A stretch of DNA of 64,000 nucleotides from Yuukianura sp. NJ FZ-2021. Lineage: Eukaryota. Both the position numbers and the translations under genes were made by a program. Below, piece after piece: positions 842 to 42,000 of this stretch; the stretch's first letter is position 1; each line of letters begins with the position of its first letter. The notes under the pieces were generated by a model. It did not search any database. It saw only the letters and a list, made by a program, of their open reading frames with translations, and was not told the origin of the DNA. The stretch lies in assembly GCA_046563655.1 (NCBI GenBank), contig CM102286.1, forward strand, positions 6,076,001-6,140,000, in the 5' to 3' direction.

Positions 842-3328
842 ATGGATTTCAAGATTTTATGTCTTTTAGTTCACGTCGCACAAGGTTTGTTTGCAGCCGA
901 GGCGAATGTGGTTCTAGATTTAAACTTCTACATCAGTAAGTACAGGGATTGCAGAGTTGTTTTGTGGTATTACTCAAGCAACGAATGGGACATGCACAAA
1001 AGCATTCAACCAATCAGCGATCCCGTTTACATCAAAACAGGATACCATCGCAATTCAGCACTGAAGTTACGTGACATTTCAAGAATGAAACTTCCGTTTT
1101 GCAGCGTATTTTTCTTTATGACTGTATACATTAGACCTCAAAATTTTGAAGATATGCTGTGGTGGTTGGAGGACGCAAACGGAGGTGTCTCAAATGAAAT
1201 GGTGGCGTTTATTGCCTTTACGATGTACAAACAACAATCGTTTCAAAATTGTTCTTTCAAAAGTGAACAATACGAAACGTTTAAAGATGGTAGGCAGTAT
1301 CTCGCTAAACTGGCTGAGTCTTCTGTGTTGATGATTGATGATTGGTCTGAAGTGCTACGTGAAACATTTGGTGCTAACACTAGCATCACGCTCAGGGCAA
1401 AGGTCAACGCATTTTTACTCGGAAAGGCACCGCCCAAAACTCGCCTTTTCAAAATTCCACTCGTTTGCCGCCTAATTTCAGCAGAAAAATGCTTTACACG
1501 ACAAAAATTGAAAATGCACCTTGTGGTTTATGAAGACCGATTTACACCAGAACTTCTTGCTTACATGTCTACGGGCGCTGGTTCATGCAACTCCGCTGAC
1601 GAAAATTTGTTTAACATCACAGATTCCATTGCGAATAAATTCTACGGTCCACAGTCCAACGTTCCTATGACAACCAAAGACCAGTTTGGGAAGAGACGCC
1701 ACGCAAAATTTGGCACCATTTGGGCGTTTTTCGCTTATATGGAAATATTATCAGTCTCAACTAGTTGCATCCAATATCATCCGAAGCCACACATTAAAGT
1801 TAGTGAAGAATCTTTTTTCAAAAAACATTTAGTCAAACACTTTGTTCGTAACAGTCATTTCATGTACAAAAACATTCAAATGTTTATGCCTTCTCAATAT
1901 GCGGCTTTTCGGTATGAGGTTGCATATATGCATAACACAACCGCAGCAGTTATTATCCTCGACACGACAGAAATGGTATTTTCCACTTGCGACGGCATGT
2001 CAAGTTCACTTGGATTTGCAATTTACCTCACACCAATGGACAGCATGAGCTGGATGTTCCTAGTCGCCATGACAACCGTCATCGTCCCATTTGCTTTCAC
2101 AGGAATAGCCATGTTCCGGAAATTACGCGGTAAAATAATAGTGAAACTATTTTTGAATTCCTTCGTTACATCGCTCTCCGCCATTCTTGAAATTTCTGCC
2201 GGCCTCACGGACAAATTTGTAGAAACCTTGAACCTCGTGCCCTACTATCGCTTGGTATTTGGTTCATTTGTGCTGGTATTGGTAGTAATTGTGAATGGAT
2301 ACAAAGGATTTTTCACTGCCGGTATTTTGGCCCCACCAAAAGCCACCCACCGGTGGGACCGCGTCGATCAGCTCGAAGGATTTCTTATAATTGATCCGAG
2401 TGGATACCTTGGTTTCCTCCAGTGCCGTAAAATGATTTCTACTCTTGACTGTTTACCGATAGAATGCAAATGCACAGCCATGGGTTACGACCTCGACGAA
2501 TATTTGAACGTAACGTTCAACAAGAGTCGAGCAATAATGACAGAACATTGCAAATTATGCGAAAAATACGAAGAAGATTTTGCTTTTGTGCGAAAACATG
2601 ATACCATGATATCTGCTCTAAGCTGTGAAGATGGAACTTATCCGACATGGTTAGAAAAGATGTGGTGGTTTTCTTTGCCTTTAGCAGAAATCGCTTCAGA
2701 TTCGTCGTTACAAAAATCAAAATTTGTTGTTAATAACAAAGGGCAATTTTTCTCTGATAGTATCAGTGGATTGAACTCAAGTGGAATTGCTAAAATTTTG
2801 GAACAGTGTGATCGCACCATTTTGATCGACTATGTCGAAGCCGTGAATTACTTTGTAGCCGAATTACTTTTCAAAAAATTGGAAGCAGGGAATAGCGAAG
2901 AAGGCCTACAGGAATTTCCGATTTCAAAACAAAAAGTTATAGAAACTTGGGTTCCAATTATTTTTAAGATATTCCCTAAACATTTAGAATTTCCGCAGGA
3001 CAAAATAATACAGAGGATGCACCAACTCGTTGAATATGGAATTTTTGAAATCTGGCGGAGAAATGATCAGGAGGAAAGAGCAAAGAATTTAGAAAAATAC
3101 AAACAGGCTATAGCGAAGTATCGAAAGTTGCCGCACAAATTGACTTTGAATTTAAACCTGGCGACGGCAATGATTTTATGGGCAATATGTGTGCTACCTT
3201 CAGGAATTATTTTCCTGATAGAAACTTGGGAAAAGATTGTTAGTCAGGTTATAACTGAAGTTAAAAAAATTAACATTAGAAGAGGGTCAATCAAACACGG
3301 AATGACACTTTCCGCACTTTTGATGTAG
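842..3328 (+). CDS. Intronless divergent ionotropic receptor (IR/iGluR-like) chemoreceptor, 828 aa
   Basis: First ATG at 842 opens a signal-peptide-like stretch (MDFKILCLLVHVAQGLFAA). Channel-like segments follow: M1 (TPMDSMSWMFLVAM), pore-like SLSAILEIS, M3 (RLVFGSFVLVLVVIVNGYKGFFTAGILAPP, equivalent to SYTANL), late S2 (RMHQLVEYGIFEIW) and M4 (LATAMILWAICVLPSGIIFLIE). Single-exon structure is typical of divergent IRs. Confidence 0.8.
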   Translation: MDFKILCLLVHVAQGLFAAEANVVLDLNFYISKYRDCRVVLWYYSSNEWDMHKSIQPISDPVYIKTGYHRNSALKLRDISRMKLPFCSVFFFMTVYIRPQNFEDMLWWLEDANGGVSNEMVAFIAFTMYKQQSFQNCSFKSEQYETFKDGRQYLAKLAESSVLMIDDWSEVLRETFGANTSITLRAKVNAFLLGKAPPKTRLFKIPLVCRLISAEKCFTRQKLKMHLVVYEDRFTPELLAYMSTGAGSCNSADENLFNITDSIANKFYGPQSNVPMTTKDQFGKRRHAKFGTIWAFFAYMEILSVSTSCIQYHPKPHIKVSEESFFKKHLVKHFVRNSHFMYKNIQMFMPSQYAAFRYEVAYMHNTTAAVIILDTTEMVFSTCDGMSSSLGFAIYLTPMDSMSWMFLVAMTTVIVPFAFTGIAMFRKLRGKIIVKLFLNSFVTSLSAILEISAGLTDKFVETLNLVPYYRLVFGSFVLVLVVIVNGYKGFFTAGILAPPKATHRWDRVDQLEGFLIIDPSGYLGFLQCRKMISTLDCLPIECKCTAMGYDLDEYLNVTFNKSRAIMTEHCKLCEKYEEDFAFVRKHDTMISALSCEDGTYPTWLEKMWWFSLPLAEIASDSSLQKSKFVVNNKGQFFSDSISGLNSSGIAKILEQCDRTILIDYVEAVNYFVAELLFKKLEAGNSEEGLQEFPISKQKVIETWVPIIFKIFPKHLEFPQDKIIQRMHQLVEYGIFEIWRRNDQEERAKNLEKYKQAIAKYRKLPHKLTLNLNLATAMILWAICVLPSGIIFLIETWEKIVSQVITEVKKINIRRGSIKHGMTLSALLM

Positions 3329-3827
3329 AAACAAAGCAACATTTTAGCACTATGACTAAAATTTTCTGCACAGTGGCAATTAAAACTACACTGTTTTTTT
3401 CGGAAAAGTATATTTGTATTAGTGAACTTTAAACTTAGCGCGAGAGAATCTTCTTTTGCCACTAGATTTAGTTGTAATTTATTCTACTTAATTATTAAAA
3501 CGAATTTGTGTCAATCTTTTTGTAATAAAATTTGTTTTTAGTTGCGTGCATCGCGATACTTTGAGTTCAACATTTATCCAAAAATCTAATATGATATGCT
3601 TTTTTTGAAAAACAACAACTTTTTAAATATTGCTTCCGTTATTACAATTTTTTAAGGAATCGAAAATTGTATAATTAATATCAACACCTCACGAACTCCT
3701 CTGCAATTCATCATTTTTGGTTGTCCGTGCTTTACCTGAAATTCAAAAACGCGTTTGCCAGCTAAACTCCTCAGTCAAGTTGGGTACAATAAAAACATTA
3801 AACGGAGATTTACGAATATTCTACAGA

Positions 3828-4100
3828 ATGGATTTCAAATTTCTCTGCATCTTAGCTCACATGACACTAGGTTGCTTAGCAACTGAGTCAATGGAGGTTC
3901 AAAATTTAAACTTCTACATAAGTAAGTACATAGACTGCAGAGTTATACTGTTGTTGAACTCAACCAACCAATGGGAAACTAGCATCCAACCAATCAGCGA
4001 TTCCGTTTACATCAACACAGGAAACTACAGACACCCAGCACCAAAGTGGCGGGACCTTTCAAAAATGAAACTTCCGTTTTGCACCGTAGTTTTCTTATAA
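3828..4100 (+). pseudogene. Truncated tandem paralog of the IR gene, N-terminal 90 aa only
   Basis: MDFKFLCILAH...NLNFYISKYIDCRV...SIQPISDSVYINTG...SKMKLPFC aligns with the first ~90 residues of the 842 protein. About 50 nt upstream are also similar. Homology ends at the TAA at 4098-4100. Confidence 0.8.
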
Positions 4101-7100
4101 GTAATTTCTTATTAATAAGTTATTCAACAATGTTGAAACAACATTGTTGTACTTTTCCCTCGAAAACTTGATTGTACTAGCTGGAACAGCGTACCTTCGT
4201 GAAGTCTTAACCGAAACTAAAATCCGACGAAACTAATAACCTAAATTAAAGTTCTGGCCACATAATTTTAAAAAAGTTAATATTTGGTACTATTAAGTAA
4301 ATTTTATGAACGGTAAAATGAAATTCAAGAAAATTTATAAGGTGAACAAGAGTTCAGCAGCAACGAAATGAAATTACAAATGCAATTTATAAAAGTGTTA
4401 GATTTAGAGTAATCAGACAAAATTTCTCTGTTTGGATTAAATTTTATTATTTCGACCATAACTTGCATCCGGAGGAAATATCCAATTATTTTAAAAAAAT
4501 GAGAATTTCTCCATACCTAAATAATTTTACTAATGACGGATTGACCAATTTTGAAAAAAAAATCGTCCTTTCTAAGTATGTTTATAAAAAAAAAAAGCTT
4601 TAAAGAAGCTTCTTCCTTAAGCATTAAACAAGTTGAAAATTTACAGAGCTGTAGACGATTAAAAAAAAAGTCAGATTGCACGGAGTACCTTGATTAATAT
4701 TGAAGTGGAAGTATGTACAATTCTCTAAAAAAGATTTTTTTTTCTTGAAAACCTCAGATCGTTGAATGAAATGAATGCGCCGCAGCTGCACTTGGAATTG
4801 GTGCAGTACAGTTCACAAGTGATGCGTTTGCGACAAGTCCGAATTATATGTCGGGTGGATAGTAGTTGAATGTTACTTGTGTCACAAGACCATCGGATTT
4901 TTAGAACAATTTTTCAGTTCTGTGTCTTGACAATCAGCGGGACCTTTCTGGAGCTTCTGAAGCCAAGTTTGACCTCCCCTTTTTTCTTTTTCTCTTTCCC
5001 TGACATGAATTCTAATTTATTTTCTCCAGCGTTCACTCTTTTACGACGATGGAGCTGCCATGGAATGAATACCACTTCCGCTTTCTTTTTTGCCAAAATT
5101 CCACTACGTTCTTTGAACAATAAAATTGCATTGCTTCACCGCTTTAAAGTTAGGAAGGAAGTTGTTAAAACAGTTCAAAAACTGTAATGCAAATATTATA
5201 TTGAATGCTACAATTCCATCAATCAACACCAGTCGCCAACTCACACGCAAAATTATCAGTGTAAAATCTCCATTTGAAATGGAGACGTGTGGATTTTGAA
5301 GGCAATTTTTTCTGCATTATATTTTTCACTCGCTGTTTATATTTTGGTTTGTGTGTTTCTTAATCATTTCCTTGTTGTGTCGAATGCGTAAATGAAAAAT
5401 CTCACCCAAATTTTTGTCACACGGGTTGCCACTCTGGAGTGTTAACTCAACTGTATCTTCTTGCGATTAGATAAAGTAGGTGTTCAGTTTGGTACAAAAG
5501 CGCTAAGAATATTTGCGTGGCGGTTCTTGTAGGGGAATTCACCAAACCGGAACCTTGGCAAGGAGCTGACACAAAAGAAAGCGCGGCAATCGGATTCTGG
5601 GTTTGATCTGCAAAGATCTTTATCTCTAGTGCACCATATTTCACCATACTCGAACATCCTGCGTGTGAACGTTTCAAAAGCTTGTAGCAGACACTTTTCC
5701 TATGTAGTTATCACAATTCTTTCAATACATCGACACAAGGACCAACCACTTTGAACTCGATTCAAGCAACTTTTCATTACAAAAACCAAAAACACTCACC
5801 ACTTCAACCTCCACCTTGCGGGATTTCAAATACTTAAAAAACATTTTGTTGTCATGCTTGGGCAGGTTGTGTTTAAGAATTACTTCAAATAATCGATATT
5901 CATTTGGCGACTTTATCCAGAGAAAAAATTCATCAGTTTCATTCAAAACCCAAAATGATTCAGTCAACAGTAAAAAAAATTTCCAGCGTTCAGTATTTTT
6001 TTTTCCTTTTGATGGAAAAGTTGCAAACTGTCATATTTTTTGGTTTAGTGTGGGAAATGGCAACATTTTTAAAACCGAAGTTGGTGGTTCGGTGGGAGCA
6101 ACTTATCCATAAAGTTTTCTGATATATTGGTGTCTCTATAAAAAGTGCTTTTAATAACCCATCATTCCCATCCTTCTTCGAGTTCTCTAAAAGTTATCTA
6201 TTTTTAACTTTGTCTTCTTTTCTCCGCTGCTGTTACCGACTTCTTAGTTCCCATCTCGATCTTTTTACAACAAATTTTTATCAGAGTTGATTGCAAAGTT
6301 TTTGGCTCTGGTCGCTTTCCTTAGAGAAAGTCCGGAGTTTTGTTCCGCCTCTTCCCGTTGTCGACTCCTATATCATGTGTAATGGCAGAAGAGGCTCTTA
6401 AGTAGCTCCTAACCTAATGTAATGCAGGCTAATGTGTTGAGTGGTGAAATGGGAACCGGAAAGGCATAAGATACCCTTATTCCATTTTCTAGACTTGGAC
6501 TTAACCGAACCAAACCTAAGACGCTGCTACAACTTCCCAAGAAGAATGAACGTAAGACCTAAAAGCAACCGAGAAAGCCGATATAGGCCTTCGCTCTTCC
6601 CATTTCATCTTTCTCTTTAAAAAAACGGGTTTTTTACTTCATTTGGTGAGGTCACTGCACTGGACAAGGATTAAATTACTATTATAACATGACCGTAACT
6701 ACTCAAAAGCAATATTTCGGAGTGTGAATTTTGTTACGTTCGTATTATGCTATTGTTGAGAAGCAGCAGTGCATTTCCAAATTCCTACTACGGTTGTGCC
6801 ATGAATGCAGAAAACTTTTCCAGTATAAAACAGCATGGTAGGGGAAGATTGAACCAGAAAATGGAGCAAATTGAACATGGTTTTGAACAAAAGGAATTAC
6901 AGAGTAGAAGATGCTTCCGGAATTTTCTACAACATTAGCTGAGTCATAGCGTGGTACAGCTAGTCAGAAAAAGTAAAAGCGGAGGGTGAAAGGCCTTTTG
7001 TTCCTGCTCTGCTCAGCGCATAATTCTCAATTCTCACCGTACAACCGAAAGTTACGATGAGCACTTTTAATATAAAAACAAAAGAGGTGTTGATTTATAT

Positions 7101-7368
7101 GCTGAAACGAGGGACTTGTGCTGGCGTTGGTTATGATTAATGTCAAAATTTTCATTTTCTGAGTTGAAGACTGCTAGGGTTCTCATCATGTTTGCAATTA
7201 AAGAAAAAAATCTGCGACATTTCTATGAATATGTTTCCAGTTGCATTTACTTCTTTGAAAGTTACAGCAAAATATTAATAAGAAATAGTTGGCTAATGGT
7301 TGATCGGAAGTATTCCGAAGAAGGCGTTAATTTCTTATGGGATAGGGATAAGCCGATTGTGAGTAATT

Positions 7369-7883
7369 AGACTAATTCGGATTTGGGATTTGGACTGGGC
7401 TTGTGGACTCTGCTACAAGCTACAAGCTACAATCCACGAGTCCAGACAAAACAGTTTCGGTTTTTCTAGATGGTGGACTGTGGACGGTAGAAATAATTTT
7501 GAATTTTTTTAACAAGTATTACATATAATATGACATATTTGAATAATATAACGGAGATTATTTAATTCATCATATCGTTCAAAAATGTTATTGGAACAAT
7601 AGCGGTTGAATTAATTCCTATTGTAAACAAAATTACCATTTTTTTACCAAAAGTTATCGAATTACTATTGTTAGTAATTATTTATTGTTGCAAACCAAAA
7701 TTGACCACAGCATTCCTCAGCTTTTTTGAAAATCAAAAGCGGGAATGAGATTTCCACCGTCCAGTCCCTGAAAGAGACGTGTTTCAAAAAAATGAGGAAA
7801 AGACTCTCTCAGGGACTGTAGGGACGGTAGCTACCGTCCACCGTACAGTCCACCGTCCCAGTCTCTGAAATCCGAATTAGTCC
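7369..7883. mobile_element. MITE with 15-bp TIRs, possibly PIF/Harbinger-like
   Basis: GACTAATTCGGATTT (7370-7384) is inverted at 7868-7882. ATT flanks both sides (7366-7368, 7884-7886). Subterminal GGACTG/GTGGACGGTAG repeats occur in both orientations. Confidence 0.65.
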
Positions 7884-14984: not shown

Positions 14985-17229
14985 AAATCTGTTCGTGACA
15001 TAAAAATACGTAACCACTAACCAGAAGGCACACTATGAGGATCTTTCGAATAGTTTTTGAATAAAAAAATGAAGAAATCAAGGTGATAAATAACATAATC
15101 ATGCTCAAATTGTCTCACAAGTCGCTGAATTTCAGGGGACATAAAACCCGTCAAAAAGGCCTTAACTTCTTTTGTATTTTTCAATCTTCCGGTATACTCT
15201 TTTGTTATTTATAATAAATTTTTTTGATCGTGCGTACTTCAAATCCTGCGTGGTAAGTTTAGGCCATCGACACTTGTCCGGCGGCGATTTTTGCTTATTG
15301 TGACACACGGGATTTTCCTTTGAAGCAATATTAAGCGCTTTCTCCTCATGCAGTTTAGAGCTATCCTTTTTCGTGTTCTCCCGCTTTAGTTTAAATCCAC
15401 CATTTCATGTTTTTATCTCTCGAATGAAAGTTGAGGAGCATTTTCCATATATTTACTCATAAAGTTGTATAAGTGTATGCCGTTCTTCCGGAAAGAAACC
15501 AAGCATCAAGCATCTTACAACCAAACAAGCACATACCCGCATACCTTTTTTTTAATTTTATGGCATATTAATTATGAGATGTTGTGAGGCGCCCTACGCT
15601 TGTACAAATTAGTCAAAAAAAAATATTCTTTAGCTTCAATTAATTTTGACAAGTTATTATTTAAATTGTTGCAGGCTTCTAAGGCACATCTTGCACTTGA
15701 TTTCTTCGCTTTTCTTCTTCTGTAATTGAAAACCACTATAATATTCACATTCTTTCAAAAAGAAAACTTCACTTACAATGTGCAAGTCGTGTGACATCAC
15801 AAACCGCAAAAAACGTTCCAGTGAAAAGTAATTATTTAGCTAACAATGGGTTTTATGCAATTTGAAAAATTATTTTAAATTCAAAACCTTCTTACCAGCG
15901 AATAAGTAGAATTCAAAACACCAAAGTATCCCGGTCAGAATTCCTATCCCGCCCATTTGGTGAAACTGTCAATATTTTGTGTGTGTGTTTATTTCTTAAC
16001 TTGCAGGTTATTTGAGCGAGCAATAAAATTTTTACTGCGTAGTCCACTATGTACATTAATCGCGTCGTTTGTTGGCATCAAGTGTGCGATGAGATATAAT
16101 CGTAGTTTCAAGTGTTGGGTAAAATTGATGGTGGTCTGTTTACGATGGAAAAGAAGGTAGCGTACTTTCTCCAAAGCAATTATTTTCTAGAAATTAGGCT
16201 ATCACTAAACTGTGGTAGGATTCCGAACTGTTTTTAGTGAAAAAGGCTAAAGTGAAGCTCAATGAAACGATGTCGCAGAGTTGTGTTTACGTGAAGGTGT
16301 ATAACACTTTTTTTAAGCTATCTTTTTGCCTGCGACATTACCAACACGCAACTACTGCTTCTGCAACTTTTGTTTTAGTTTTGGGAAACATTCAAAACTT
16401 TCTTCCTGTGAGAAAACAGGAATTTCGCATCTCTTCTGGGAGAAAGTTGTGAATGCACATGCGTTTCTTCCTCTCCCTGTTACTTCCGCTTCACTTTAAT
16501 TTCTTTAAAATCCCCACAGTAGTTTTGCCTTTCGCTGCAGAAAATGTTGTACAAATGTAAAATGATGAGTGATAAAGAATAACTAAAAACGTTTTGTTGA
16601 AAATGGTTTAAACTCATTTAACTAGTAATTTTATTGAATCACAATATGCTTTAAAATCACGTGCATTTGTGATTATTTTAGCCTTTGCTTTGACGTTGAA
16701 TTTGAGTTTGAAGCAGCAAATGTGTTATTTGCAGAATTCTCATCTCAAAAAACAGATTCACAGGTTGGCAGCTCTGGTTAAAATTAAAACAATTTTCCAT
16801 TTTCTGCAAAACAAAAATGTGTGTTCTACGATGATGTAATTTGATTGGAAGGAGAAAAGAGGCAGCAAAAAGACGGGGTTTGATCCGAACAGGCTTTTTA
16901 GTGTAAAGGGGTTGGTCGACGGGATTGAAGATGCCATTAGTGTCCATCTTTCAATTAAAGTTCAGCATGAAAGTTCTGCGTTCTCTCCACAGGAGACTGC
17001 CAACAACTTGTACTTCAAGTACTAACTCCTTTAACCGAATTATTAACTTCAATCTTTTGAAGTTGATTCTCTCTGCTTCACATGGCAGAGTATGTTTCTA
17101 ATAGTATTTTTGTTGGTCCGCGCATGACAACGAACAATAATGTCTGCGACAACATCTTGACTTACGGCGTTTGTTTTTCTAAAAACATACCGGAATGATG
17201 TTTCAATGAGTTATCTCATTTTTAATATT

Positions 17230-17594
17230 TGAAGCGGACAGGGACTGACGAGGGACGGATTCGGAACTCCGGAGGAAACCGAGTAGTTAGGCATAGGTAA
17301 AGTAGGAGGACTATGTTCTCTGAGTGTAGGTTACAGAAAGATCTTTATTCACATTTTCTGTAGCGGGAGTCTCTTCCCAACCTTCAACAAGTGAACATCT
17401 CAATAAAAGTTATTCCATTAGTTCACTTTGTTGTTTCCGACCATTTCATTTCTCAGTTGATGTTGGCACATTAGGAGAACCAAGTATTGTTGACCTCAGG
17501 TCAAATCTTCTCTCCAGGAAGATTCGACCTGAACTGGTGATTTCCCTGTAGAGGAAATCCCAGTTTCGGTCTCAGGGACTGCGGGGTTGTTGCA
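17230..17594 (+). repeat. 5' LTR
   Basis: TGAAGCGG...GTTGCA; AATAAA at 17402-17407; direct repeat of 22732-23096. Confidence 0.95.
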
Positions 17595-17595
17595 G

Positions 17596-17610
17596 TGGCG
17601 GCCGAAGGGA
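17596..17610 (+). other. Primer-binding site, tRNA-Lys-like
   Basis: TGGCGGCCGAAGGGA starts 1 nt after the LTR. It resembles the tRNA-Lys(UUU) PBS TGGCGCCCGAACAGGGAC with one mismatch and a 2-nt gap. Confidence 0.6.
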
Positions 17611-18477
17611 TTATTCCAGTGATGTCAAGATGATCAACTGAAATGAAAGGTCAACAGGTCAAGTGAGACTTTCCTGTAGAGAAAGGCTCTATTGAAGAAA
17701 ACTGAAGAAGACTACGAGATAAATTGATGAGAATTTCCCTGTAGAGGAAATTCTGACCTACCAGCTGATTGATTTTCCTGTAGAGAAAAGCAATCCAGCA
17801 TTGGAATAAAACATAAACCTACTTGTATTTTCCAGGAGAGAAAAGACAGGTCAGGTCAAAGGTCACATAAAGGCACGGGTGCTGCCAAAAATTTTTCAAA
17901 AATCGTTTTCACGCACGGGTGCTGCCCGATTTTTTCTAAAATCCAAACACTTTGAAATTTTCCTGAAGAGAAAAGTTCAAAGGTCAAGAACACCAAACCA
18001 AAGGACAGAAAGCAATTCGTCGCTCATTTTGAAAAATCCTGAAGAGATTTTTCGAAAAACCGAACCGATTTTCCTGTAGAGAAAATCGTTCACTGTCCAA
18101 TTGATGCAAAATTAAGAGGAGGAAGAGATTCGCATAACAACCCTGACATAAAATTAAGGCACGGGTGCTGCCAAAAATTCCAAAAATCAGACATTACGCA
18201 CGGGTGCTGCCCAATTTTTTTCAAAAAAAAAAGCGAAAATCACGCACGGGTGCTGCCCGATTTTCCAAAAATTACCAAATACTTTGATTTCCCTGAAGAG
18301 GAAATCGAAAACCCAAGGAGAGGAACAAGTTGTAACTTGGAGTTGAAGCTCCTGAAGAGAGCATCGACACCAAGACCATCTCAGAACCCCTTAAAACAAA
18401 CAGAATCCTAAAAATCGACTCAGTTAACTGGACTAATTGAAATTCCTGAAGAGAATTTCGTTTTCCAGCATTAACTA

Positions 18478-20121
18478 ATGAGCAGAAGGGAGGTGAGAGA
18501 TTTAGAACAAAACTCTCGTGCATTCCTACGTGGATTCAACATGGACAAACAAAACATAAATCCAATTCCTGAAGAACCAATTGATGTTGATGATCTTGAA
18601 GGTGACATGCATATTCAGAATCCAGTAGATGATGATGATGATTATTCAAATGGAGGTTCAGATGCAAGTTCCGTTGTTCAACGAACTGTAGCAAACCAAG
18701 TTCCTATCGTCTCATCTGCTGCTTCAACTCTCACAACCCAAGCTCCAACAGCAACAACAGGCATGCGCACTAGGGGTTCTGGTACATCCAGTTCACGTGC
18801 TGTACCGAGTGGAGCAGATTACGTTCACATTCCAGAATCGAGTCAAGTTAATGAACAAAATGTCGCAAAATGGATCAATGAGGGATTAGCTGCTATGGTT
18901 TCAGAAATTGTTAATCCTATACATACGGCTCTAACGCGATTGGATAGACGTATGCACAGAATGGAGATTGGCAATGCAAATCCTACTGGCAGCCAATTCT
19001 ACCAACCACAATTCAGCCAAACACAGCAAATTAATCAACCTCAACAAGATTTTCTAAACGCTCTTCAAGGAATTCGACTGACAACCGTGAGTTCTGCAAT
19101 TCCAATTCCGAAATTCAACCATAAGAAAACAACAGCTTCAGACTTCTTGAAGGATGTTGAAAGATACTACAGAGCTCAACAATACAATGAGAATGACTAC
19201 TTGTATTTGGTGAAAACCATTTTGCCAAATGATGCTAAGGAATGGTGGGACCATGTACGTCACAGAATTGATGACTGGGATGAGTTCAAGCAAGAATTTA
19301 TAGAAAAATACGACGGAGCTACCAACATCATGGAACGAATGAGGCTTTTGCAAACAAGACTTCAGCGTGTCCATGAACCAACAGAGTCTTTCGTTTTTGA
19401 AATGATGAAGATGTCAAAGGTCGTTTATCCAAATGAACCTACAGAAATGGCTGTTGAAAGAACAAGAAATGCCCTATTTCCGCAGTTGCGACTGGGTTTA
19501 GGAGCTCAAGAAATTAAAACACCGGAGGCTCTAGTCAAAGCTTGTCACGTGGTTCACCGTAGCCTTGAAGCTAACGCTAGAGTTTACAAAGAAAAAATTC
19601 GCCTACCGCCATTAAGTAAACATGAAATGGAAGAATCTAAGAAAAACCATGGTCCCAAACAGAAATCTGAAGAAAAGTCGACGGAGGAGACAGAAACTGA
19701 ATCCTATCGCGACTCAGCGTTTTCTCATGGACAACGGGGATTCAATCAAACATACAATTCAAACTCTAGACGTCCATTCCGCGGCGGCAGAGGAAATTTC
19801 CCTGATAGAGGAAATTTCATTTATCGTGATGGAAGATGGAACGGAACCCCAAGAGGTGACAAACAAAATGACAAACCTCAAGAAGCTCAACCAAGTCAAA
19901 ATCCATCTGACAAAAACAAGCTGGCTAATGTTCAATGCATGAAATGCAAAGGATTTGGTCATCTTACAAAAGTGTGTCCGAATAAAACCGGATTGGCACT
20001 ACCCACTCATGATGAGGAATGGGAAACTGAGTACGACGAGGAGTACTACGAAGAAGAACAACTGGATGATGACTACACCAATCAAAATCCAGATTTAAAC
20101 TCCCAAGGGAGACACCAATAA
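18478..20121 (+). CDS. gag: Gag: retrotransposon capsid plus CCHC zinc knuckle, 547 aa
   Basis: Capsid-like PKFN...DFLKDVERYY...DAKEWW...WDEFKQEFIEKY...LQTRLQRVHEPTESF; RGG-rich segment; CMKCKGFGHLTKVC knuckle; acidic tail. Confidence 0.9.
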   Translation: MSRREVRDLEQNSRAFLRGFNMDKQNINPIPEEPIDVDDLEGDMHIQNPVDDDDDYSNGGSDASSVVQRTVANQVPIVSSAASTLTTQAPTATTGMRTRGSGTSSSRAVPSGADYVHIPESSQVNEQNVAKWINEGLAAMVSEIVNPIHTALTRLDRRMHRMEIGNANPTGSQFYQPQFSQTQQINQPQQDFLNALQGIRLTTVSSAIPIPKFNHKKTTASDFLKDVERYYRAQQYNENDYLYLVKTILPNDAKEWWDHVRHRIDDWDEFKQEFIEKYDGATNIMERMRLLQTRLQRVHEPTESFVFEMMKMSKVVYPNEPTEMAVERTRNALFPQLRLGLGAQEIKTPEALVKACHVVHRSLEANARVYKEKIRLPPLSKHEMEESKKNHGPKQKSEEKSTEETETESYRDSAFSHGQRGFNQTYNSNSRRPFRGGRGNFPDRGNFIYRDGRWNGTPRGDKQNDKPQEAQPSQNPSDKNKLANVQCMKCKGFGHLTKVCPNKTGLALPTHDEEWETEYDEEYYEEEQLDDDYTNQNPDLNSQGRHQ

Positions 20122-20142
20122 CCACCTCGATGTGTGTTCTCC
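20094..20142 (+). promoter_or_regulatory. Putative -1 ribosomal frameshift signal (gag-pol)
   Basis: T TTA AAC heptamer (20094-20100) is in the correct gag phase, followed by a 6-nt spacer and a stem GGGAGACAC (20107-20115)/GTGTTCTCCC (20133-20142). The -1 frame is open into the protease remnant. Confidence 0.7.
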
Positions 20143-21710
20143 CGATTCTCAACAAAATCTCAAGAGGTGTACCTACAATTCAAGATACTTCAAATCAATT
20201 CAAATTTTCTGCATTCTTGGACTCAGTGTCTAAGTTTTGCATGATGACAGAACAATTGACAAAACATACCCACTCAAAAATCAAAATTCAATTCAAAATT
20301 CATATTTTTCTCAAATGTGACGCATGAGACATTTGCTTGGGCACTGCGCAAGTTCAAGCTATAGATGGAAAGGATCGGCCAATCTTATTCATCTGCAAAA
20401 TCCTAAAGAAAACGGAACGGAGTGCACACATTTTCATTCTCTCACGAGCTCCAGTTGACAGTCATGACACTGAAGGAACGGACGACCCAGAAGAGATCGT
20501 CTGTACCCCTATGTGTTTCTGTTACGAGACACCGACTTCAAACCAAATCAAAATTGACCAAGAAAATGAAATTCAAGCTTCACGTCTCAAGAAATTGATT
20601 CGTGATGACCCTTCAAATTCCAAGTGTACACACTTCTTAATTGAAGTTGGAATAGTGAAGCGTCAAGTCGAGATTCCGCTCAAGAGAATCAAAAAGTACT
20701 CTCTCGCAGATACTACCGAGGTTCACTCAACAGTAGCTGAAACTCAAATTCAAAAAATGGAAATTCCGGGTTTCCAAAAATGTACATCCAGTGCAGAGGA
20801 ACCTAATCAAGTTCAGTCGGCAGGGATCGTACCAGAGTCAAACCAAACCAAAATGTCAAAACAGAAGTTCGTTTTCCTGAAAATCAAGATTCCAGTTATC
20901 CTAACGTCACTCCAAAATGAAATTCAGAAGATTTTTCATGATGCACCGGAGTCAGGTCATCTTGGAGTCAAGAAGACAAAGGAGGAAATCAAACATCGAT
21001 GTTTCTGGAACAGAATGAATAAGGACACTGCTGACTACGTCAAGTCATGCAAAATTTGTCAAACGACAAAGCCGGACAATACCCTACCATCTGGGTTATT
21101 CCAACCAACAAAATTCACGTTAGCCCTTTTGAACTTAGGCAACGATTTGCCACTTCCGTTTGACAGAAATTTGGAAGCTAAAGGAAACACCAATTTTGAT
21201 GAAGAAAGCGCGAAATTGACATATTTACCCGAGAAACTACAAGAATTAATCAAATGGGTACGCGAGAACATGGAGGAGGAACATGAAGAAACTAAGAAAA
21301 TGTACGATAGTTCTCATCGAGATGTTATATACGACAGTGGTGATGTTGCCTTAATTCGAAATCACCCAATTCCCAAGAAGGACGATGAGATGATGCAAAA
21401 ATTTTCAAAACGACGGCTATGCCCTTTCAAAATTACGTCAAGAACCGCAGATGCAAGCTACGAATTAGCAGATCCAGTCACAAACAAGAATATCGGGAGA
21501 CGTCACGTTTTGGAGCTAAAACCATTTTTTGTTCGAAAAGAAACTGTGTCAGAAATCAAGAACAATGACATTCGAAAAAGTCAACCAAATACCAGGAAGT
21601 TACGCGAGAAGAAACCAACCAGTGACATTCCGACAAGTACAGCAGTTACAAGCAAATTACGCGAAAGAAAACAAGTAAATTATAGGTCATTGGCAGGCCT
21701 ACGTCATTAG
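20130..21710 (+). pseudogene. pol: Internally deleted pol: protease stub, RNase H fragments, integrase zinc finger and C-terminus; no RT, no DDE core
   Basis: One frame with a single TGA at 20325-20327. Motifs: FLDSVS (degenerate DSG), CDA*DICLG...QAIDGKDRPI (RNase H DAS motif), LSRAP, FHDAPESGHLG...CKICQ (HHCC), LCPFKI (GPY/F-like), RHVLELKPF. Confidence 0.85.
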
Positions 21711-22731
21711 TTAAGTCAAAATAATAATTAATTATTAGTTAGGAAAATATTCAAATTATTATAATATAAATCACAATGTTGATAGATTTATAATTTTGCT
21801 GAAATAATTAATAGTACTGAAATAGTCTAGTCCAGTACCTTTAGTACATTTAGTCGTTAAATTTAATGTTTAGTAAAATAGAATCGTACGTGGGCGTTAA
21901 GCAGTTTCCGCTAAGTCAGAGTTTTAGTCACAACCTCACTTTAGAGCGCTAACTCACAATCATTTATCTAACTATCTCACTTGCTTTCTAGATTCAGCAC
22001 AGTACAGTCTAAAGATTCACTCTAATTTCCCTGTAGAGGAAATTGGTAATTGAAATTCTCCAGAAGAGAGAATTTCTACTTCTAAAAATGTTTTACTGAT
22101 TTTCCTGAAGAGAAAATCGGTGTTGACTTCTCCGTAGAAGAAGTGGACAATGTCACAAACGTTGAACTGAAGAAGAAATCAAGATTATTGCCGACTTCTG
22201 ACGAAAGTGTCAACAACACTCAATTTACTGACAAACCAATGGAAGTGACAAGCAGTTGAAACGTAACTTTACTTCAAAACAAATTGGCACAACGATATGC
22301 TGAAGAAGACATTGCTGACATAACTGATGAGTTGCAGATCAACATCTAACAACATCAGAGACAAGTTTTGACAGTTCCTACATCCTACAACAATTCAACA
22401 ATCTAACTTCAAAGATTTACTCATTTGTTTCTCGAATGGACACAACAGGCAAGAATGCCCGAAAGTCAACCAACAACCGGACAGAAAAGCAATATTTTGG
22501 AAAGAAAACAATCCCGGAACCTCTATTTTGAACAATGTCCAGTCAACAGAATTCATTTGACTCAAAGAACTAACATGAAAAAACGGGAGAACCTTAAGAC
22601 AAAACGTGGGAATTCTGGACGTGTCGAGTGGAAACGAGACGATAAGAAGACGAAGATTTTATCCGCTGGTCGAGGTCGGAGGACCGAGCATGGAGATGGC
22701 GCTGATGGAGGCGCGTTTCGCGGGCGCAATA

Positions 22732-23096
22732 TGAAGCGGACAGGGACTGACGAGGGACGGATTCGGAACTCCGGAGGAAACCGAGTAGTTAGGCATAGGT
22801 AAAGTAGGAGGACTATGTTCTCTGAGTGTAGGTTACAGAAAGATCTTTATTCACATTTTCTGTAGCGGGAGTCTCTTCCCAACCTTCAACAAGTGAACAT
22901 CTCAATAAAAGTTATTCCATTAGTTCACTTTGTTGTTTCCGACCATTTCATTTCTCAGTTGATGTTGGCACATTAGGAGAACCAAGTATTGTTGACCTCA
23001 GGTCAAATCTTCTCTCCAGGAAGATTCGACCTGAACTGGTGATTTCCCTGTAGAGGAAATCCCAGTTTCGGTCTCAGGGACTGCGGGGTTGTTGCA
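22732..23096 (+). repeat. 3' LTR
   Basis: 365-bp direct repeat of 17230-17594, followed by TSD TATT. Confidence 0.95.
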
Positions 23097-25157
23097 TATT
23101 TCACACTAGTATTGTCTCACATGTGACGAACAGAAATTGGAACTCGATAAATGCGAGGTTAGAAAATTGTGGAACTTGTAAAAGCGTTTGAAAGCTGCAA
23201 CCAAAATCAGAGTAACTTGAAAAAAGTAATAAGTATAAAATCTCCTACGTAAAATTCCTACGTTACAGTCTCGCACGGTACGTTTTCAGAATTCATAAGG
23301 GAGTATGAGTCGATCTGTTCCGCATTTGTTTTCCAAGCATGATTGAGCCTGACTCTGTAATGTAACCATTCTGGGTAATATCCGTCCTAATAAGTTCCAA
23401 TAAACGACAAAACGATGTCCCTGACCTGCTTCAGAACTTACGACGAGACGAAATTGGACGGAAACCAAAATCCTTTCGTCCTCTGCAGCTTTTTGATCTT
23501 TCTCGTGCACAAACTATGTTTTGCAAATTCATGGTGTTATTTTGCTCTCACTGTCCTAAAAATGTTTAAAAACTAAAGCAAGCATCAACATTATTATAAA
23601 ATCCAACTGAAAAATTGGATATTATGAAACATTTCATACGCTCACTTCAATGTAATGTGTTTATATACGCACGAATGTATTTTACAATAGAGCTTGAAAA
23701 TGACCAAGTGCAATGTATTGCACCATGTTCGAATTTTTGGAAAAGTAAAAGAAAGACAAGCCACGAATAGGATAGGAGAACCTAATGGAGAAAGTTGGGC
23801 TTAACTGGAGTTACTTATAAGAAAATAGGATTTTTTGAACAATTTTCAGTTTTATCCCTTGACAATCCAAAAACTCTTCCAGGAACTATTCGAGTCCAAC
23901 TCTCTTCCCTTCCTTTTTCTTTCCTGACGTGAATTCTAATTTATTTTCTTCAGCTCAGTCAGTCCTTCCGTTTCCATTACTGCACAAAGCATTGGACTGA
24001 ATATCGCTTCCGCTTTTTCCTTGTTCAAAATTCTGTGTCCTCACAGTTACACTTTCTCAATCAAACTACACCAAAAATATCCAAATTTTTGGAACAAACA
24101 CTGAAAACAGAAAAAGAAAAGTTAAACGACTTATAGACACGAGTTACTCATTTAGTCATACACCAATTGTGATGCTTTCTGATGCTAAATGAAATCGAAT
24201 GAGAAAAAAATATAAATAAACACACTTCAAATGGTGATTGGTACAAAGTTGGCAGCTTCAGTAACTAAAGTTGGCAAACCGGAATTTTGGCAAAGACTTT
24301 TAAAGCAACGGAGTGTTGTGATTGGCTTTTGATATTGATGAGCTAAAGGCCGTTTACTGTGCAGCACATTTCAACACCTTCTTTTGAAAGAACTTTTCTT
24401 TGCTAAAATGGACGCTTCAAATTGGTGATTGATTATTAACATAATATGGAGTAATTTGCGGTATATACTGAAATTCTCACGTAGATTTTCATGTGATCAC
24501 ATTTAATGTATGATGAATCGGGATCTGGCAAACTATCGAACCAATTTTGAGCTTTCCAACCAACTTTCGTTTTTTTTTTCAACTCCATTTTGCTCCCACT
24601 ACTTAAATCCTAGTGCATACGCACCTTCAGAAAATTAGTTGTGGTAAGAGTCTTATCACAACTAATTTCGACTTCCTAATTACCGTAAGACTATATTTCA
24701 GATACGCTATATTATTGTTATTTACGCGTTAGGGCTCGTTTTTATTTCATGTATCCTATAGCATTTACTGACGTCTGGAATTTGGTGGAAGATTTTGAAG
24801 AGTAAATCAGATACTATGCGACTTTCGTAACAACTAAAAGTCTCAAACACACAAAATCATGAGTTTTGTTCATTGCACTATTTTTCTTTTGTTCAGACTA
24901 ACATAAGGGAAATATTTGGTAATTAATTCTTAGCCCTCTTCGTCCCTGTAACCCTCCCACTCCTCAGATGAGTCAAAGGACAAGTCCCTTTAATGCGTAC
25001 ACTTTGCGCCTACCCCACCCTAACTTCTAATCTTCTAGAAGGATACATTTCTATTGTGAACTTTGGAATTGGATCCAGTTTCCAGTCCCATTTTACATGA
25101 GAATCACTTTGATCAGATGAACATAGATTTTACAAAGGATCAAGTTCAGTGTTAGCA

Positions 25158-36040: not shown

Positions 36041-39000
36041 TCAAGCGTTTGATTCTTTTAAAGTCTGGGCCATTTTCATTGCTGCATCACTGGATTGCCA
36101 GTCGAGGAATTCGTTGTTGTCTACTAAGTGACTCTGGCCGGCGGGAGGACGTCCAAACCTCGGAAGTTTCTGAAATCCGTTCTGCTGTGGGAGATGTTTG
36201 GGTCGATTGTACGAAGATGTACAGTCATCTGGAAAAAAGTAAAATGTTAAATTTTATATCAGCTCATAAAATCGGGTTCTAAAACTAAGGACATGCAGTA
36301 TCATACTCTAATTGACGAGTGTCCCTTGGTCACAACGCGAAAACCCATGCTAATGCAAACTATAGGTAGAAAAAACTCTGTGCTTGGAAGAGAGGAACGA
36401 TTCTGGGGTGTACCTTTTACATTACTTCTCCAAGCACAGACTTTCCACAAATTCCATCTCAACTCAAATTCAGGGGGGGGGGGGTCTGGGGGGGTCCACC
36501 TCAACAATGTGTTTTTGATTCAACTAGACGGAACCCGTGATGTTTACACATCACGAAATTTACTTGAAGCACTAGGTCATTGTTGGGTCAAACGGAAGAG
36601 CTAGGAGATTTTTGACAAAATATTAAAAATCATCTTGCCCCATGTCAAACATCGACTAGCTCTTTCGTTTGGCCCAACGATGAACTAATGCTTCAAGTAA
36701 ATTTCGTGATGTGTAAACATCACGGGTTCCGTCTAGTTTCCAACAATTCAAAACTTTCGGATGCACTTTGTCTCACTGCATAAACAGAAAGCAAGAGAAA
36801 GTTGAGAACGGAAATGCCACCTAGCGCAATAAATTTGAAAATTTTGAAACAGCGTAGCTTTTGCTTTTTTGCTCGGGGAAATTGCTTGTTTAAATTTCGC
36901 GCTCAGTCAGTGATTTTGTTCAAAATGCTTCACAACTTTTTCCTTGAAAACGAAAACTGCTGAGAAACACAAAAACGTTGTACATCAAAGTAATTTTTTA
37001 GGTTGAAAGGTGTATAATTTGTGGATAATTGGCATAAATTTGAACGACTTCATTCACTGGCCATTAAACTGCTAAACCGGTTCGCATCCTCAATTTTTCT
37101 TCGAAGTCAATTATTTCTCCCATACACTGTGAACCATTATCACCCGGATGATAGTCTCTAGTGAGTAAAAAGTAATTGGGATTAACGCACCGAAGCAAAA
37201 ATTAACGCCATTTACACAGTAAAAGTGTACACTAAAGTACAATTTCTTGTCAAAACAATACAATGGAAAAACAACAACATCTTTTAAAAAATCTAAGCCT
37301 AAAACACTTTGAAAAAAAGAACTAACCAGTTCTTGAAGGCAGTAAAGGTGCGAGATGGCGCCTCTCCAAAGATTTACAAGAGTTATCGAATTTCTTCTTA
37401 TTTCCTTTGTTGTACAGTCTTTTACTTCCAGATTTACCGGAATTGAAGCTATCACTTGAGTACGCAGGGGAGCTTGAGCGCGAATTTTTAATCACTCCCC
37501 GAGCCGACGCCGAGCTACCACTGTTGTTTAAAATGTAATTGTTGGAAGTGGTTTGTGGAATTACATCATCGGCTTCTGCATATAAATTGCAGGAATTGGA
37601 GTCTGAGGCGAGACTTGGCAAGGAAGACTGAATTTCTCGATCAATCAGAGGAAAGACACTCGGATTTTGTTGTTGTTGCTGCTGGGAGAGCAGGAAGTTG
37701 GCTTCTTCGAGGTCACCGGGTTGGTAAACAGCTTCTGCAAAACCATTTGAGGCGGAAGCGGACTTGTTCGGATTGAAAATTTCGCCAATGTGGTACAGAT
37801 TCTCAGTCGTATGGGAATTTAGTTGGTGACCATGATGGAACTGTGGGTGTTGTTGATTGCCAGAGTAATGATGTAGAAGGGAAGAAGGAANNNNNNNNNN
37901 NNNNNNNNNNNNNNNNNNNNNNNNNNNNNNNNNNNNNNNNNNNNNNNNNNNNNNNNNNNNNNNNNNNNNNNNNNNNNNNNNNNNNNNNNNAAGGAATTTG
38001 ATCAGACTGCAGACCATTGTGAGATCTGTTTTGACCTGGACTTGGATAGCATCCCATTCTGGAACTCATCGGGATCTGTCGAGAGCAAGCAAAAAGGAAA
38101 GATGAAATTTTTGATTTCTTTTTTTTTTTTTTTTTATACAAATTCTTGAATTTTTGAATTTGTAAATTCCTGGAGAAAAGCAAATTGAAAGTAAATTTTT
38201 GTTTTCATCAGTACAAATTGTGCCGTTCTTTGCAACAGAACGCAGGTTTTTACTTAGAAATGCATTTAGAAAAAAGAAATGAAAAGTACATTCTTCTAGC
38301 GAGCATTTGTACTTGTTTCTAGATGAACAAGGAAATTCGAATTTTCCAGGAAGAGTTGAAAATTTGCGCGTGAACTGAAAAATTTAATTTCATTTGCTTC
38401 TCTCTTTTTTGATCAAAAATTTATACCATGTTCATAGCCGATGAAGGTGACGGAGACGGTGGCTGATGACTGGATTTGAATTTTCTAAAATTATTTGACC
38501 CCATGGACAGCTTCGAGCGGCCTAAAAAATTTCCAAAGCAATGATTATTACCTTGTCCAATTATTTTTTGAAATTTCGAAAATTGTTCTTTACAGGATAA
38601 ATTCTTACCGGAACTAAATTGATCCGAATCTCGATAGTTATCCGCTCCATTCTTGTTCAAGGGCCCTCCGTTTATGGGCAGTGGGTCCTAAAATGAGCAA
38701 TAAATTTTCATGACGACTCTTCACCTTATTCAAGCCTTGGAAGACGAGCCTTTGTCTTTTAAAAATCAAAGGGACCCCCACAAGGCTGTCTGACTTTGAG
38801 CTCGTAAAATTCTATTTAAGTTTATCTAAAAATTTCCTTTTATGGCGCATCCCATGTTTTTTGAAACCAAAATAAAAGTGTAGTTTTTTCTTAATTTTGA
38901 ATTACATAATTAGGTCTCCGCTGGATAAGCGTCGTGGTGGCATAAGGTGTTAAGTCTGGCTGTTGAAGGTGGAGCAACTGCGCCTGTCCTTTTCCATTGT

Positions 39001-42000
39001 TGCAGCTATTATTGTAGAACGTCGTAAGACTATGTGGGTCTACTTCGGCGTAGTCTGTAGCTTCTGTAGCCATTTCTCCACTGCCCAAGTGATTCGTCAG
39101 TAGCTTTGTCTTGGAACGATTAGAATCCTTGTCTGTCGTGTCAGTTGGACCCCAACGTTGGTCAATCCAGAGCGACTGCTTTCCGCTAACAAACTGCGTG
39201 TTACTATGTGGTGCCACGACGACACCTGAAAATTCACATGAAGAAATTTTTTTAAATACATTCAAAATTTTGGCGTGCTTCAGATTCAAGCAGGTTCTTT
39301 ATTTCTGCCTCAAAGAGCCGCAGCAGATCAAATCTCAATTTGAAAATTAGTTCCAACACGTCCGTTTTTTGAATTTGGGCTTTGAAGCGAGGAAGAGTCA
39401 GGAGCAGTGGAACGGAATGATTTACTTAAGGTGTGAGAATTTTCTGGAAGATGCGGGTGAATCCTATCAGTTCGGTGCCTAAATGTAATAATACGCTTAA
39501 GGTCTCACTTGAAATATGGTCTTTCTTCCCGTGGGACTTTCTGCGGCTGTAGAGGATGATGATGAGAAGAAGGAGGAAGATGAACAGGAGGAAGCCCATC
39601 AGGATGATGAACCAAACTTCCTTAAGAATCTCTGATGAGTTCCCATCTTCAGAAGAATTAACACTCTTCGAATTAACTTCAGACGAGGCGGCTGGAGATG
39701 CAGGGACCATGAGAAGGGAAAGCGGCGGTGAGTAGGGCCCTTCCCCCACTGCGGTGAAAGCACTCACGCGAATCGTGTACGACCTGCCGATGGTCAAGTT
39801 GTTCACGACGATGGCGGTAGTGTTTGAACCCACGTCAGTTTCCGAGTGAATCCGCGTGTCGTTGCGGCGCACTTCCACCTAAGGATAAAAAAATGTGTAA
39901 AATATGCTGAAACAAGCATACAAAGATACAGATGCTGTGACAAAAAGTCATCGCCAAAAGAAAAAACAGAAGATTAACATTACGACAATTTTTTCCCCAA
40001 CGTAACTCGTGTTTTTTTTCTAGATTGGTTTGCTTTGTGTAAGTTGAATTAGTCGATGCGTTTTTGGTGCTGTTTTACGTTTTCAAAATCCAATTGAATT
40101 AATCGATGATTTCAATTCAATTCCGAGATGAAGCTCGGAACGCAATAAATCGATACATTACTTGAATGATACTTTTGTTTTCCAAAAATATAAATTTGAA
40201 ACACAGATCGATGCAGATTAATCTTCTGTTTTTTAAGGTTTTGTGTCTTTACTGCCTTTTGATCGAGCAGAAACCAGAAAAGGAACTCAGGCATTTTGTA
40301 ATGGCACATTGAAGCCAATTTTCCTGCTCCTTTGGATCTCATTTTAATTCTGGTCTGCCTCTCAATTTCCATTCACTTCTCCGCTTTCTTTCAAATTAGT
40401 TGCACCCACGAGCGCATCTCAACCTCAAACAGTCTTCTGATAAAAACGCTCCATTCTTAACAAAAACAGCGGGAAAGGAGAGTTTTTATCAGGCCATTTG
40501 TAGTCTAATGGGAATCTTATTGAAAACGGCAGAAATCCTACGTAACAGTAATTTTTTAGTTAAGGTATTCACTAAACACGTTATATGCTAAGAGTCTTCT
40601 TTTTTTTCAATTTTACTATTCCATATAGGTTCAGAAAAATTTAATCCAGCAAATAGCTCACCAAAAATAGTATATAAAATTCCAGTGGCAGGCTGTTTAC
40701 AAGCCGTTGAACTCTTGCGTTCTAGCAGACTATCATTTCTTACTGCTAAAAAATACTAACCATAAAACCTGTCAAATTATAACCCAAAATGTGCTATTTT
40801 ACTCTAATCTAATGTTATAAAGTTGAAAAACAGTAAGCAACATTACTCTTTGTAATGTTGGTTACGTTAGGGAGTGATGGGTGGGAAAGGAGGTCAGAGG
40901 AGTCAGCATAATTAGGAGGAATGACCCTTGAAGGGCTAATAATTTGTCTTGGAGAAAGTCCATAACTTTTCACTTACTCTGTAGCCTGTCAAAACTCCAT
41001 TAACGTGGTTAGGTGGCGGGGGAGTCCAGGTTATGGTGGCTGCAGTGGAGTTGACGATGGTGGTCACCAGGAGCCCTTGTGGTGGGGCAGATGGCCCTGG
41101 AAAAATAAATAATTAGAACCCTTAATTCCTGTTCTTGAATTAAATCTAATGGAGCATAATCGTCTTTCCCCTCCGCATCCACTTTCTCTACCCTTAAGAT
41201 CAATTTTCTTGCGCGGACGGTTTTTAAAATTCGGGGTTATAAAAATTCAAAAGTAAATAATAAAATCAAAATTTGGTCTAAGTACGTTACAGCGGAATTT
41301 AAAATTTTGTCTTTCCCCGAGTTCTTCAAATGTTAAAATTTCATGAGGCACGAGTAAACTGCTCAAAGTTGCTCATTTTTTTGTTACAATAATTCAAGTC
41401 TAAAATGAAACGTTTGAGGCCGTTAGGCAATTGATTTTCACTTGAGATTTGAAAATGAAAGTTATAATGATAAAGTTAGCGCATGGAGATTTGAAAACTT
41501 TCATTTTAGTTCACTGAACTAAAACTATACGGAGATGCGCGCATAAGTACACTTTTGAAAAGGCGCGGTTTAGAATTTGGTGGTAGCAGCCACTAATTCT
41601 TTGAAATATTAAAGAGATGCTTTCATAAATGCGGAAGGGGGACCAGCCATTCGACGGTTTCCTTTTACATTTTCCCTAACTTTGCTGCACTTTCCCTTTA
41701 ATTCGAGGAAAGTTCTTGCCGTTGAATTAATACTCGGAGCAGTCCCGCGGGAAAACAATGTTTTCATTTCAGAAAGTTGTGTGCTCAGAAGATGAAGAAG
41801 AGGGGAGACGCTTTCTTTGGAAAAAATAGTTACTTCCTCCACTAATGAGCGACCTCTTAAGACAAGGGGCATGAGCGAAGAGTTCTACGCAGAACCGTGT
41901 CTCAAGATAAAAACTTTTTTTTAAAAAAAATTGAATTTTGGTTGTAAAATATAAAAACAATGGGAAGAAGACCACTTCAGAAATCAGAAAAATAAAGTTT

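Follow-up and report, generated by a model that had tools for sequence, protein, structure and literature searches.

A recently inserted Ty3/gypsy-type retrotransposon in Yuukianura sp. with an intact gag and a pol frame that lacks its catalytic regions, probably mobilised in trans

We analysed 64,000 nucleotides of the Yuukianura sp. NJ FZ-2021 genome (NCBI GenBank assembly GCA_046563655.1, contig CM102286.1, positions 6,076,001 to 6,140,000 of the forward strand; this whole stretch is called the window, and positions are counted from its first letter). The plus-strand segment 17230-23096 of the window is a Ty3/gypsy-type long terminal repeat (LTR) retrotransposon, with paired TG...CA LTRs inside a short target-site duplication and a gag that encodes a capsid-like domain and a CCHC knuckle (Table 1). 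It is probably a non-autonomous deletion derivative of such an element that was mobilised in trans. The parts that act in cis were kept, that is, both LTRs, a candidate tRNA primer site and a hairpin-rich leader and 3' untranslated region, and so was the element's own Gag. Because these parts are kept, the enzymes are gone and the insertion is recent, mobilisation in trans would be the simplest account.

The insertion was found to be recent and polymorphic, and the family to be multi-copy. Both LTRs carry the same letter at 365 of 365 positions in an ungapped comparison, and a separate repeat comparison gave 100% identity over 300 nt. Words of the element were present in five coded public runs from two studies, with no RNA run among them; four of the five were placed on positions 16000-24500; all figures from their contigs rest on the best-supported rows, i.e. 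on the matches listed. Runs X2 and X3 derive from the same sample as the best holder of the words (the source sample), and run X4 derives from organism B. In X4, the empty site is represented by one contig (depth 865) that joins 17224 to 23096, with six letters fitting either side; organism B is a close relative, with flanks about 98.5% alike to those in the window. A contig in X2 and X3 joins 17194 to 23098 at a depth of 31 and 25, respectively, versus about 200 in the flanks, and has 28 diverged letters between its two sides. This contig is a second, element-free haplotype in the source sample. Together with the identical LTRs and the target-site duplication, the empty-site contigs of X4 and, at low depth, of the source sample agree with the preliminary description of this DNA, which had considered the element just transposed.

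Run X1 gave information on the family. Its summed contig depth was 190-480 over the element versus 60 in the flanks (3-8 times), although such depth is no copy number. Among its short contigs, 121 were 99+% alike to the element, 75 were 95-99%, 66 were 90-95% and 24 were under 90% alike. Since this likeness spans 99+% to under 90%, both near-identical and older copies exist. Two contigs of X2 bear on longer copies. One matches the window up to 20300 and then continues with 187 letters unlike it (among the matches listed); the first 30 of these were translated manually in the pol frame and agree at three places with the protease strand that comes next in relatives, and we read the contig as a putative longer copy that retains what the first deletion removed. 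The other, a joint from 21097 to 21122 with its middle unread and a single-copy-like depth, may represent a copy retaining what the third deletion removed. The loose ends of X3, which terminate in GATC, are probably library joins and were disregarded. As separate observations, element-like contigs in X4 had a depth of 20-60 versus about 865 in the flanks, far under the single-copy level, for which a minor sample component or carry-over between libraries is possible; and at 17560, 18449, 18730, 18912 and 21464 the letter of the window is contradicted by every contig of all four runs, owing either to variants found in this copy alone or to assembly consensus errors.

What remains of pol is a single frame at 20094-21707, here called mini-pol, of 538 codons with TGA at 20325-20327 as its sole stop. 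The remaining two frames over the same stretch contain 24 and 29 stops, and none of 2000 shuffles reached one stop or fewer (mean 34.2, minimum 19). A protein search with mini-pol gave 5940 matches at E <= 0.001 among 1.84 billion representative proteins, the best of which were 36-42% identical. We aligned mini-pol to the database proteins P0005, P0006, P0009 and P0011 and to the pol of a related metagenome contig (L001). The preliminary description had placed a protease stub, the start of RNase H, an LSR motif, the integrase HHCC finger and the integrase C-terminus in one frame, with reverse transcriptase (RT), the middle of RNase H and the DDE core missing; the alignment and its gaps against L001 pol confirm both statements.

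Residues 23-69 of mini-pol correspond to the protease N-terminus including the place of the active site. The D-S/T-G motif of this site is universal in retropepsins. Relatives have it, whereas mini-pol reads D-S-V, so that the protease stub of the preliminary description is present but its motif is not the canonical one. Between motif and first junction the stub is about 20-25 residues short of P0006, P0009, P0011 and L001, as judged by eye. The beginning of RNase H is represented by residues 65-114 (58% identity to residues 532-581 of L001 pol), which cover positions 5-49 only of the 105 of the RT_RNaseH profile. Here, as had been noted beforehand, the sole stop occupies the Ser position of a DAS motif, and this Ser is present in four of four relatives (P0005, P0006, P0009, P0011). 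Residues 116-336 lead from an ALSRAP motif through a linker to the HHCC finger, and the integrase C-terminus, conserved tail included, takes up residues 337-537. At the third junction (21101|21102), GLF directly abuts QPTKFTLALLNLG. The remnants follow the order protease, RNase H, integrase with RT absent, versus the full order protease, RT, RNase H, integrase in relatives.

Measured against L001 pol, three stretches are gone from mini-pol: about 430-460 residues that comprise the rest of the protease and the entire RT, a piece of 71 residues from the RNase H core, and 150 from the DDE core. The deleted stretches are present in all five aligned relatives (P0005, P0006, P0009, P0011 and L001 pol), and P0006 (1167 aa) and L001 pol (1219 aa) both contain protease, RVT_1, RT_RNaseH, Integrase_H2C2 and rve in the same order. 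In a Pfam scan of the whole element, RVT_1 and rve were matched in none of the six frames, as the preliminary description had anticipated, and only Integrase_H2C2 and a partial RT_RNaseH were detected. The element thus has neither an RT nor an integrase DDE core of its own, which an autonomous element would possess. Splicing was considered as the source of the first deletion and dropped, the letters of the longer X2 contig after 20300 having no initial GT. Copies of the same family were absent from the collections searched (proteins, metagenome contigs, genome contigs and viral contigs), and a 36-base string spanning the first junction had no match in the metagenome contigs. Alignment of gag across the metagenome contigs gave two loci of 36% and 33% identity, and among 13 pattern matches in genome contigs and three in viral contigs no relative of gag was confirmed.

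The gag open reading frame (ORF) extends from an ATG at 18479 to a stop at 20119-20121 (547 codons). It is full length compared with four database relatives, and the CCHC knuckle is visible in the alignment. The closest relative (E 2e-137) is 52% identical by BLASTP and 57% identical in the full alignment. At E <= 0.001, four proteins among 7997 scored candidates were homologous to gag, one of them with a precomputed PF03732. Pfam scores were slightly below threshold (Arc_capsid_dom 24.3 bits with a cut-off of 27, Retrotrans_gag 23.6 with a cut-off of 24.1). The gag relatives have a C-terminus of the form D/H-L-N. The pol frame is -1 relative to gag, and the slippery heptamer T_TTA_AAC is also found at the gag end of L001 (2294) and shortly past the gag match in a second metagenome contig, L002 (1538). 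Since both related metagenome loci have it, the frameshift site is a feature of the clade. Downstream of it, two stems were predicted, one in the centroid fold and one in the minimum-energy fold, which jointly could form a pseudoknot.

Mobilisation in trans would proceed as follows. The RNA of the element would be translated into Gag, and rare ribosomes slipping at T_TTA_AAC would append a tail of 77 residues and halt at the TGA. An autonomous relative within this genome would supply protease, RT/RNase H and integrase in trans, and its particles would copy and integrate the RNA of the element and so give rise to identical LTRs and a 4-bp duplication. That three deletions keep the frame would then be due to chance or to past history, and would not mark a selected protein. 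Loss of the enzymes would have preceded the move and not have happened in the same cycle. Because two inactivating point changes come on top of three to four deletions, we infer that pol degenerated stepwise and free of constraint, and not through one faulty round of copying. An intact gag, the lack of RT and DDE core, a multi-copy family and one contig that continues past the first junction fit the gag-encoding parasite with borrowed enzymes that the preliminary description had envisaged. According to PMC9744471, plant LTR families without RT and integrase are cross-mobilised by partners.

Several observations weigh against this account. No helper with an RT was directly seen in the runs, where the evidence amounts to one loose end and one joint near the third junction. 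A clear polypurine tract is missing at the edge of the 3' LTR (no run of at least 10 in 22690-22731). The stem downstream of the frameshift site folds no better than shuffled sequence (z -0.92; 39 of 200 shuffles fold as well); the preliminary description had called gag, the LTRs and the frameshift signal intact, which holds for gag, the LTRs and the slippery heptamer but not for this stem. Furthermore, the residues H, H, C and C of the HHCC finger are intact in columns that are invariant among the aligned relatives, and many conserved residues of the integrase C-terminus are kept. None of the three large deletions disrupts the frame, for which the chance is 1/27 under independence and neutrality, and apart from one stop the frame is clean, versus 24 and 29 stops in the others. 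Finally, two intact-looking relatives keep only 76% of conserved positions, and the family may be an outlier in the conservation test given below.

The same structure could have arisen in one step if, in the insertion cycle itself, reverse transcription of the RNA of an autonomous parent switched template several times, which would yield a dead-on-arrival copy and no gag-only lineage. Internal deletions during reverse transcription are generally known to be common in retroviruses, and no second copy with the same junctions was present among the matches listed. However, three to four deletions and two point changes (the stop and the protease Gly) would have to fall in one cycle, and short contigs 99+% alike over the whole element suggest several near-identical copies. 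We consider such a one-off origin unlikely. We also considered a collapsed or chimeric assembly of copies as the source of the deletions. The copy in the window is indeed not simply mirrored in the short-read contigs, with its five discordant places in all four runs. But the LTRs are perfect, the target-site duplication is exact, the flanks show 0-1 differences to the run contigs, the sole N run of the window lies at 37891-37990, and three false joins that all keep the frame and fall at domain edges would be improbable. An assembly artefact therefore seems extremely unlikely.

Selection on the mini-pol frame was the central proposal of the preliminary description. A Gag-mini-Pol fusion made by frameshifting could help the element's own RNA into the helper particle or intasome, or act as a decoy, and the TGA would in that case be a recent hit confined to this copy. 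In favour of it, three of three large deletions are in frame with one stop in 538 codons, and what was retained consists of non-catalytic modules whose HHCC residues are intact. There is also a precedent in mouse IAP elements, where the I-delta-1 gag-pol fusion acts in cis and the subtype accounts for most new IAP insertions (PMC6466679). The 1-in-27 figure (p 0.037), however, is post hoc and was taken from a scan of many elements; in a scan of this very large size, a coincidence of about 4% speaks only weakly for selection, and a clean frame is expected anyway in a young family. In this copy mini-pol is closed 77 codons after the shift, so that the frameshift product is at most Gag plus 77 residues; the copy moved recently despite this stop, and the full protein was thus not needed for, or not made by, this copy. 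Usually no more than a few per cent of ribosomes shift frame. The protease motif, which has lost its Gly, is decayed, and no second copy was seen.

Conservation points in the same direction. In a leave-one-out comparison of the retained region, counted from the start of RNase H onward at positions at least 85% conserved among the other sequences, mini-pol keeps 31 of 42 highly conserved positions, the lowest share of 20 sequences. The other 19 pooled keep 760 of 853, and L001 pol keeps 41 of 44. This suggests relaxed constraint but is not decisive. With the stop at the RNase H Ser, the lost protease Gly and this lowest share, the remaining pol frame shows signs of relaxed constraint; we infer that mini-pol was not under selection, and the claim of selection is not supported. 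Maintenance of the frame by selection is, to us, quite improbable, and we would be equally reluctant to accept the specific form in which a selected, catalytically empty scaffold docks in the helper particle or intasome and biases packaging or integration to its own RNA.

Table 1. Parts of the retrotransposon in the window, with the evidence for each
Feature	Positions	Strand	Evidence
Left target-site duplication, TATT	17226..17229	+	Same 4 bases at 23097-23100, abutting the LTR ends
5' LTR, 365 bp, TG...CA	17230..17594	+	365/365 match to 3' LTR, ungapped comparison
U5 plus 5' leader; 10 hairpins (stems of 4-12 bp, loop CTG[A/T]AGA of 7 nt); 13-nt motif, 5 copies	17539..18460	+	Pairing and shuffle tests
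Candidate primer-binding site, TGG start, 1 base past the 5' LTR	17596..17612	+	Position and TGG start
Intact gag with capsid-like domain and a single CCHC knuckle, ends in TAA	18479..20121	+	ORF and relatives
-1 slippery heptamer T_TTA_AAC	20094..20100	+	X_XXY_YYZ register of the gag frame
Protease stub, active-site place D-S-V (20220-20228)	20160..20300	+	Local alignments to P0006, P0009, P0011, P0022 and L001 pol
RNase H start (about 45-50 residues), sole stop TGA at 20325-20327	20301..20435	+	Alignment to relatives
ALSRAP motif, linker, integrase HHCC zinc finger	20436..21101	+	Integrase_H2C2 E 1e-18
SH3-like C-terminal part of integrase with conserved VNYR.LAG tail, ends in TAG	21102..21710	+	Alignments; SH3_Tf2-1 weak (E 0.021)
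3' untranslated region with 2 further hairpins (22022-22046, 22094-22122)	21711..22731	+	Motif scan
3' LTR	22732..23096	+	Ungapped LTR comparison
Right target-site duplication, TATT	23097..23100	+	Flush with the LTR end

Besides its coding remnants the element has an array of hairpins. Its plus strand contains 13 instances of the loop CTG[A/T]AGA between stem arms of 4-12 bp, which correspond to 12 distinct hairpins, the one in the LTR being counted twice (3' LTR copy at 23041-23061). Elsewhere in the 64 kb, the stem-flanked loop was found on neither strand. A looser pattern had 30 matches in the window versus 13.2 expected. When the 12 hairpins were aligned, 95.2% of the cells were paired although the stem sequences vary, and changes on both sides were seen in five of seven pairs; the copies are paralogues within one element, and their relatedness inflates these covariation counts somewhat. 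None of 500 shuffles reached the observed pairing, and slid controls gave 28-63%. The motif had no match in Rfam and is absent from L001 and L002; over 17000-23300, Rfam gave no match at E <= 1. The hairpins are candidate Gag-binding or packaging sites, and an element that lives as a parasite would profit from many packaging hairpins. As an observation beside these, the 5' leader contains five copies of a 13-nt motif (CACGGGTGCTGCC; at 17874, 17914, 18160, 18199 and 18245), all of them followed by an A/T-rich run.

Given this investment in cis RNA structure, with 12 distinct hairpins, the pol pieces might themselves have been retained for a role as nucleic acid in cis, such as packaging, export or internal plus-strand priming, and their common frame would then be incidental. 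The edge of the 3' LTR without a clear polypurine tract would fit, and purine runs are found inside mini-pol at 20978-20988 and 21272-21281. None of the hairpins lies within the pol remnant, however, and no conserved structure or motif was shown in 20094-21710, where Rfam had no match either; a role of this kind is very doubtful. Three further observations concern the non-coding parts. The final 90 bases upstream of the 3' LTR are unusually rich in G+C for the element. A search of the window for tRNA genes that could name the primer found none. In the 3' region, tblastn gave no significant match to the third ORF of L001 (best E 0.93).

As it stands, the element is an ordinary non-autonomous derivative of a known type. 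LARD/TRIM and ETn/MusD are LTR elements that are moved in trans and have no coding capacity. Unlike LARD/TRIM, the element encodes Gag in an intact 547-codon ORF. Its full-length relatives include the metagenome contig L001 (gag 36% identical, pol remnants 37% identical overall) and P0006, which share a clade and the C-terminal tail motif with it but have a complete series of protease, RT, RNase H and integrase. L001 further differs by the lack of the hairpin motif and by an extra ORF with a 3'-5' exonuclease domain. This ORF of 501 codons lies 3' of pol (6061-7566; DNA_pol_A_exo1 E 4e-26) and ends in a C-terminal CCHC-like knuckle. The L001 contig has no LTRs, and the ORF is either part of the element or a neighbouring gene.

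A closer comparison is offered by mouse IAP I-delta-1, for which Saito et al. 2008 is reportedly the primary paper. PMC6466679 presents I-delta-1 as non-autonomous with an internal deletion that keeps the frame, in need of gag and pol in trans and very active; its deletion is a single one of 1.9 kb that fuses gag to pol and leaves the frame open. In the present element gag is whole, three separate deletions lie inside pol, and the frame across the junctions is not open but stopped by the TGA at 20325-20327. Among plants, PMC9744471 lists RLG_WHAM and RLG_Sabrina with RLG_Wilma/BAGY2, non-autonomous RLC_Angela, and BARE2, which are full LTR elements using the proteins of partners, as would be the case here. 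These families are old, with coding regions degenerate or gone, and in BARE2 it is gag, not pol, that was lost. In contrast, the element is from an animal and young, its gag is intact and its pol remnants can readily be aligned.

Other parts of the window were inspected as well. An open frame of 840 codons on the plus strand (806-3328) had no Pfam match, and a second version of its start region is found about 3 kb downstream (713-1116 versus 3699-4096, 73-83% identity); the region may represent two genes in tandem or a further mobile element. An inverted repeat at 36522-36738 has 96-nt arms, 92% complementary, around a 25-nt spacer. On the minus strand, 39400-47500 contains exons of an immunoglobulin/fibronectin-III cell-adhesion-type gene (I-set E 1e-20, fibronectin type III E 3e-10). 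Because of these I-set and fibronectin type III exons, the host can be recognized as an animal from the window itself.

The polymorphic insertion shows that this retrotransposon family is currently active in an animal genome, where a gag-encoding parasite apparently lives off the enzymes of a relative. If a selected scaffold existed after all, then together with the array of 12 hairpins it would make a parasite tuned at the RNA and the protein level to outcompete its helper, and an invertebrate counterpart of the cis-acting I-delta-1 fusion. Should the deletions prove to be shared and constrained, the family would be the second independent case, I-delta-1 being the first, of a defective retroelement whose shortened polyprotein aids its own spread. 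The hairpin array is a more concrete lead than mini-pol, as a candidate packaging signal of this family.

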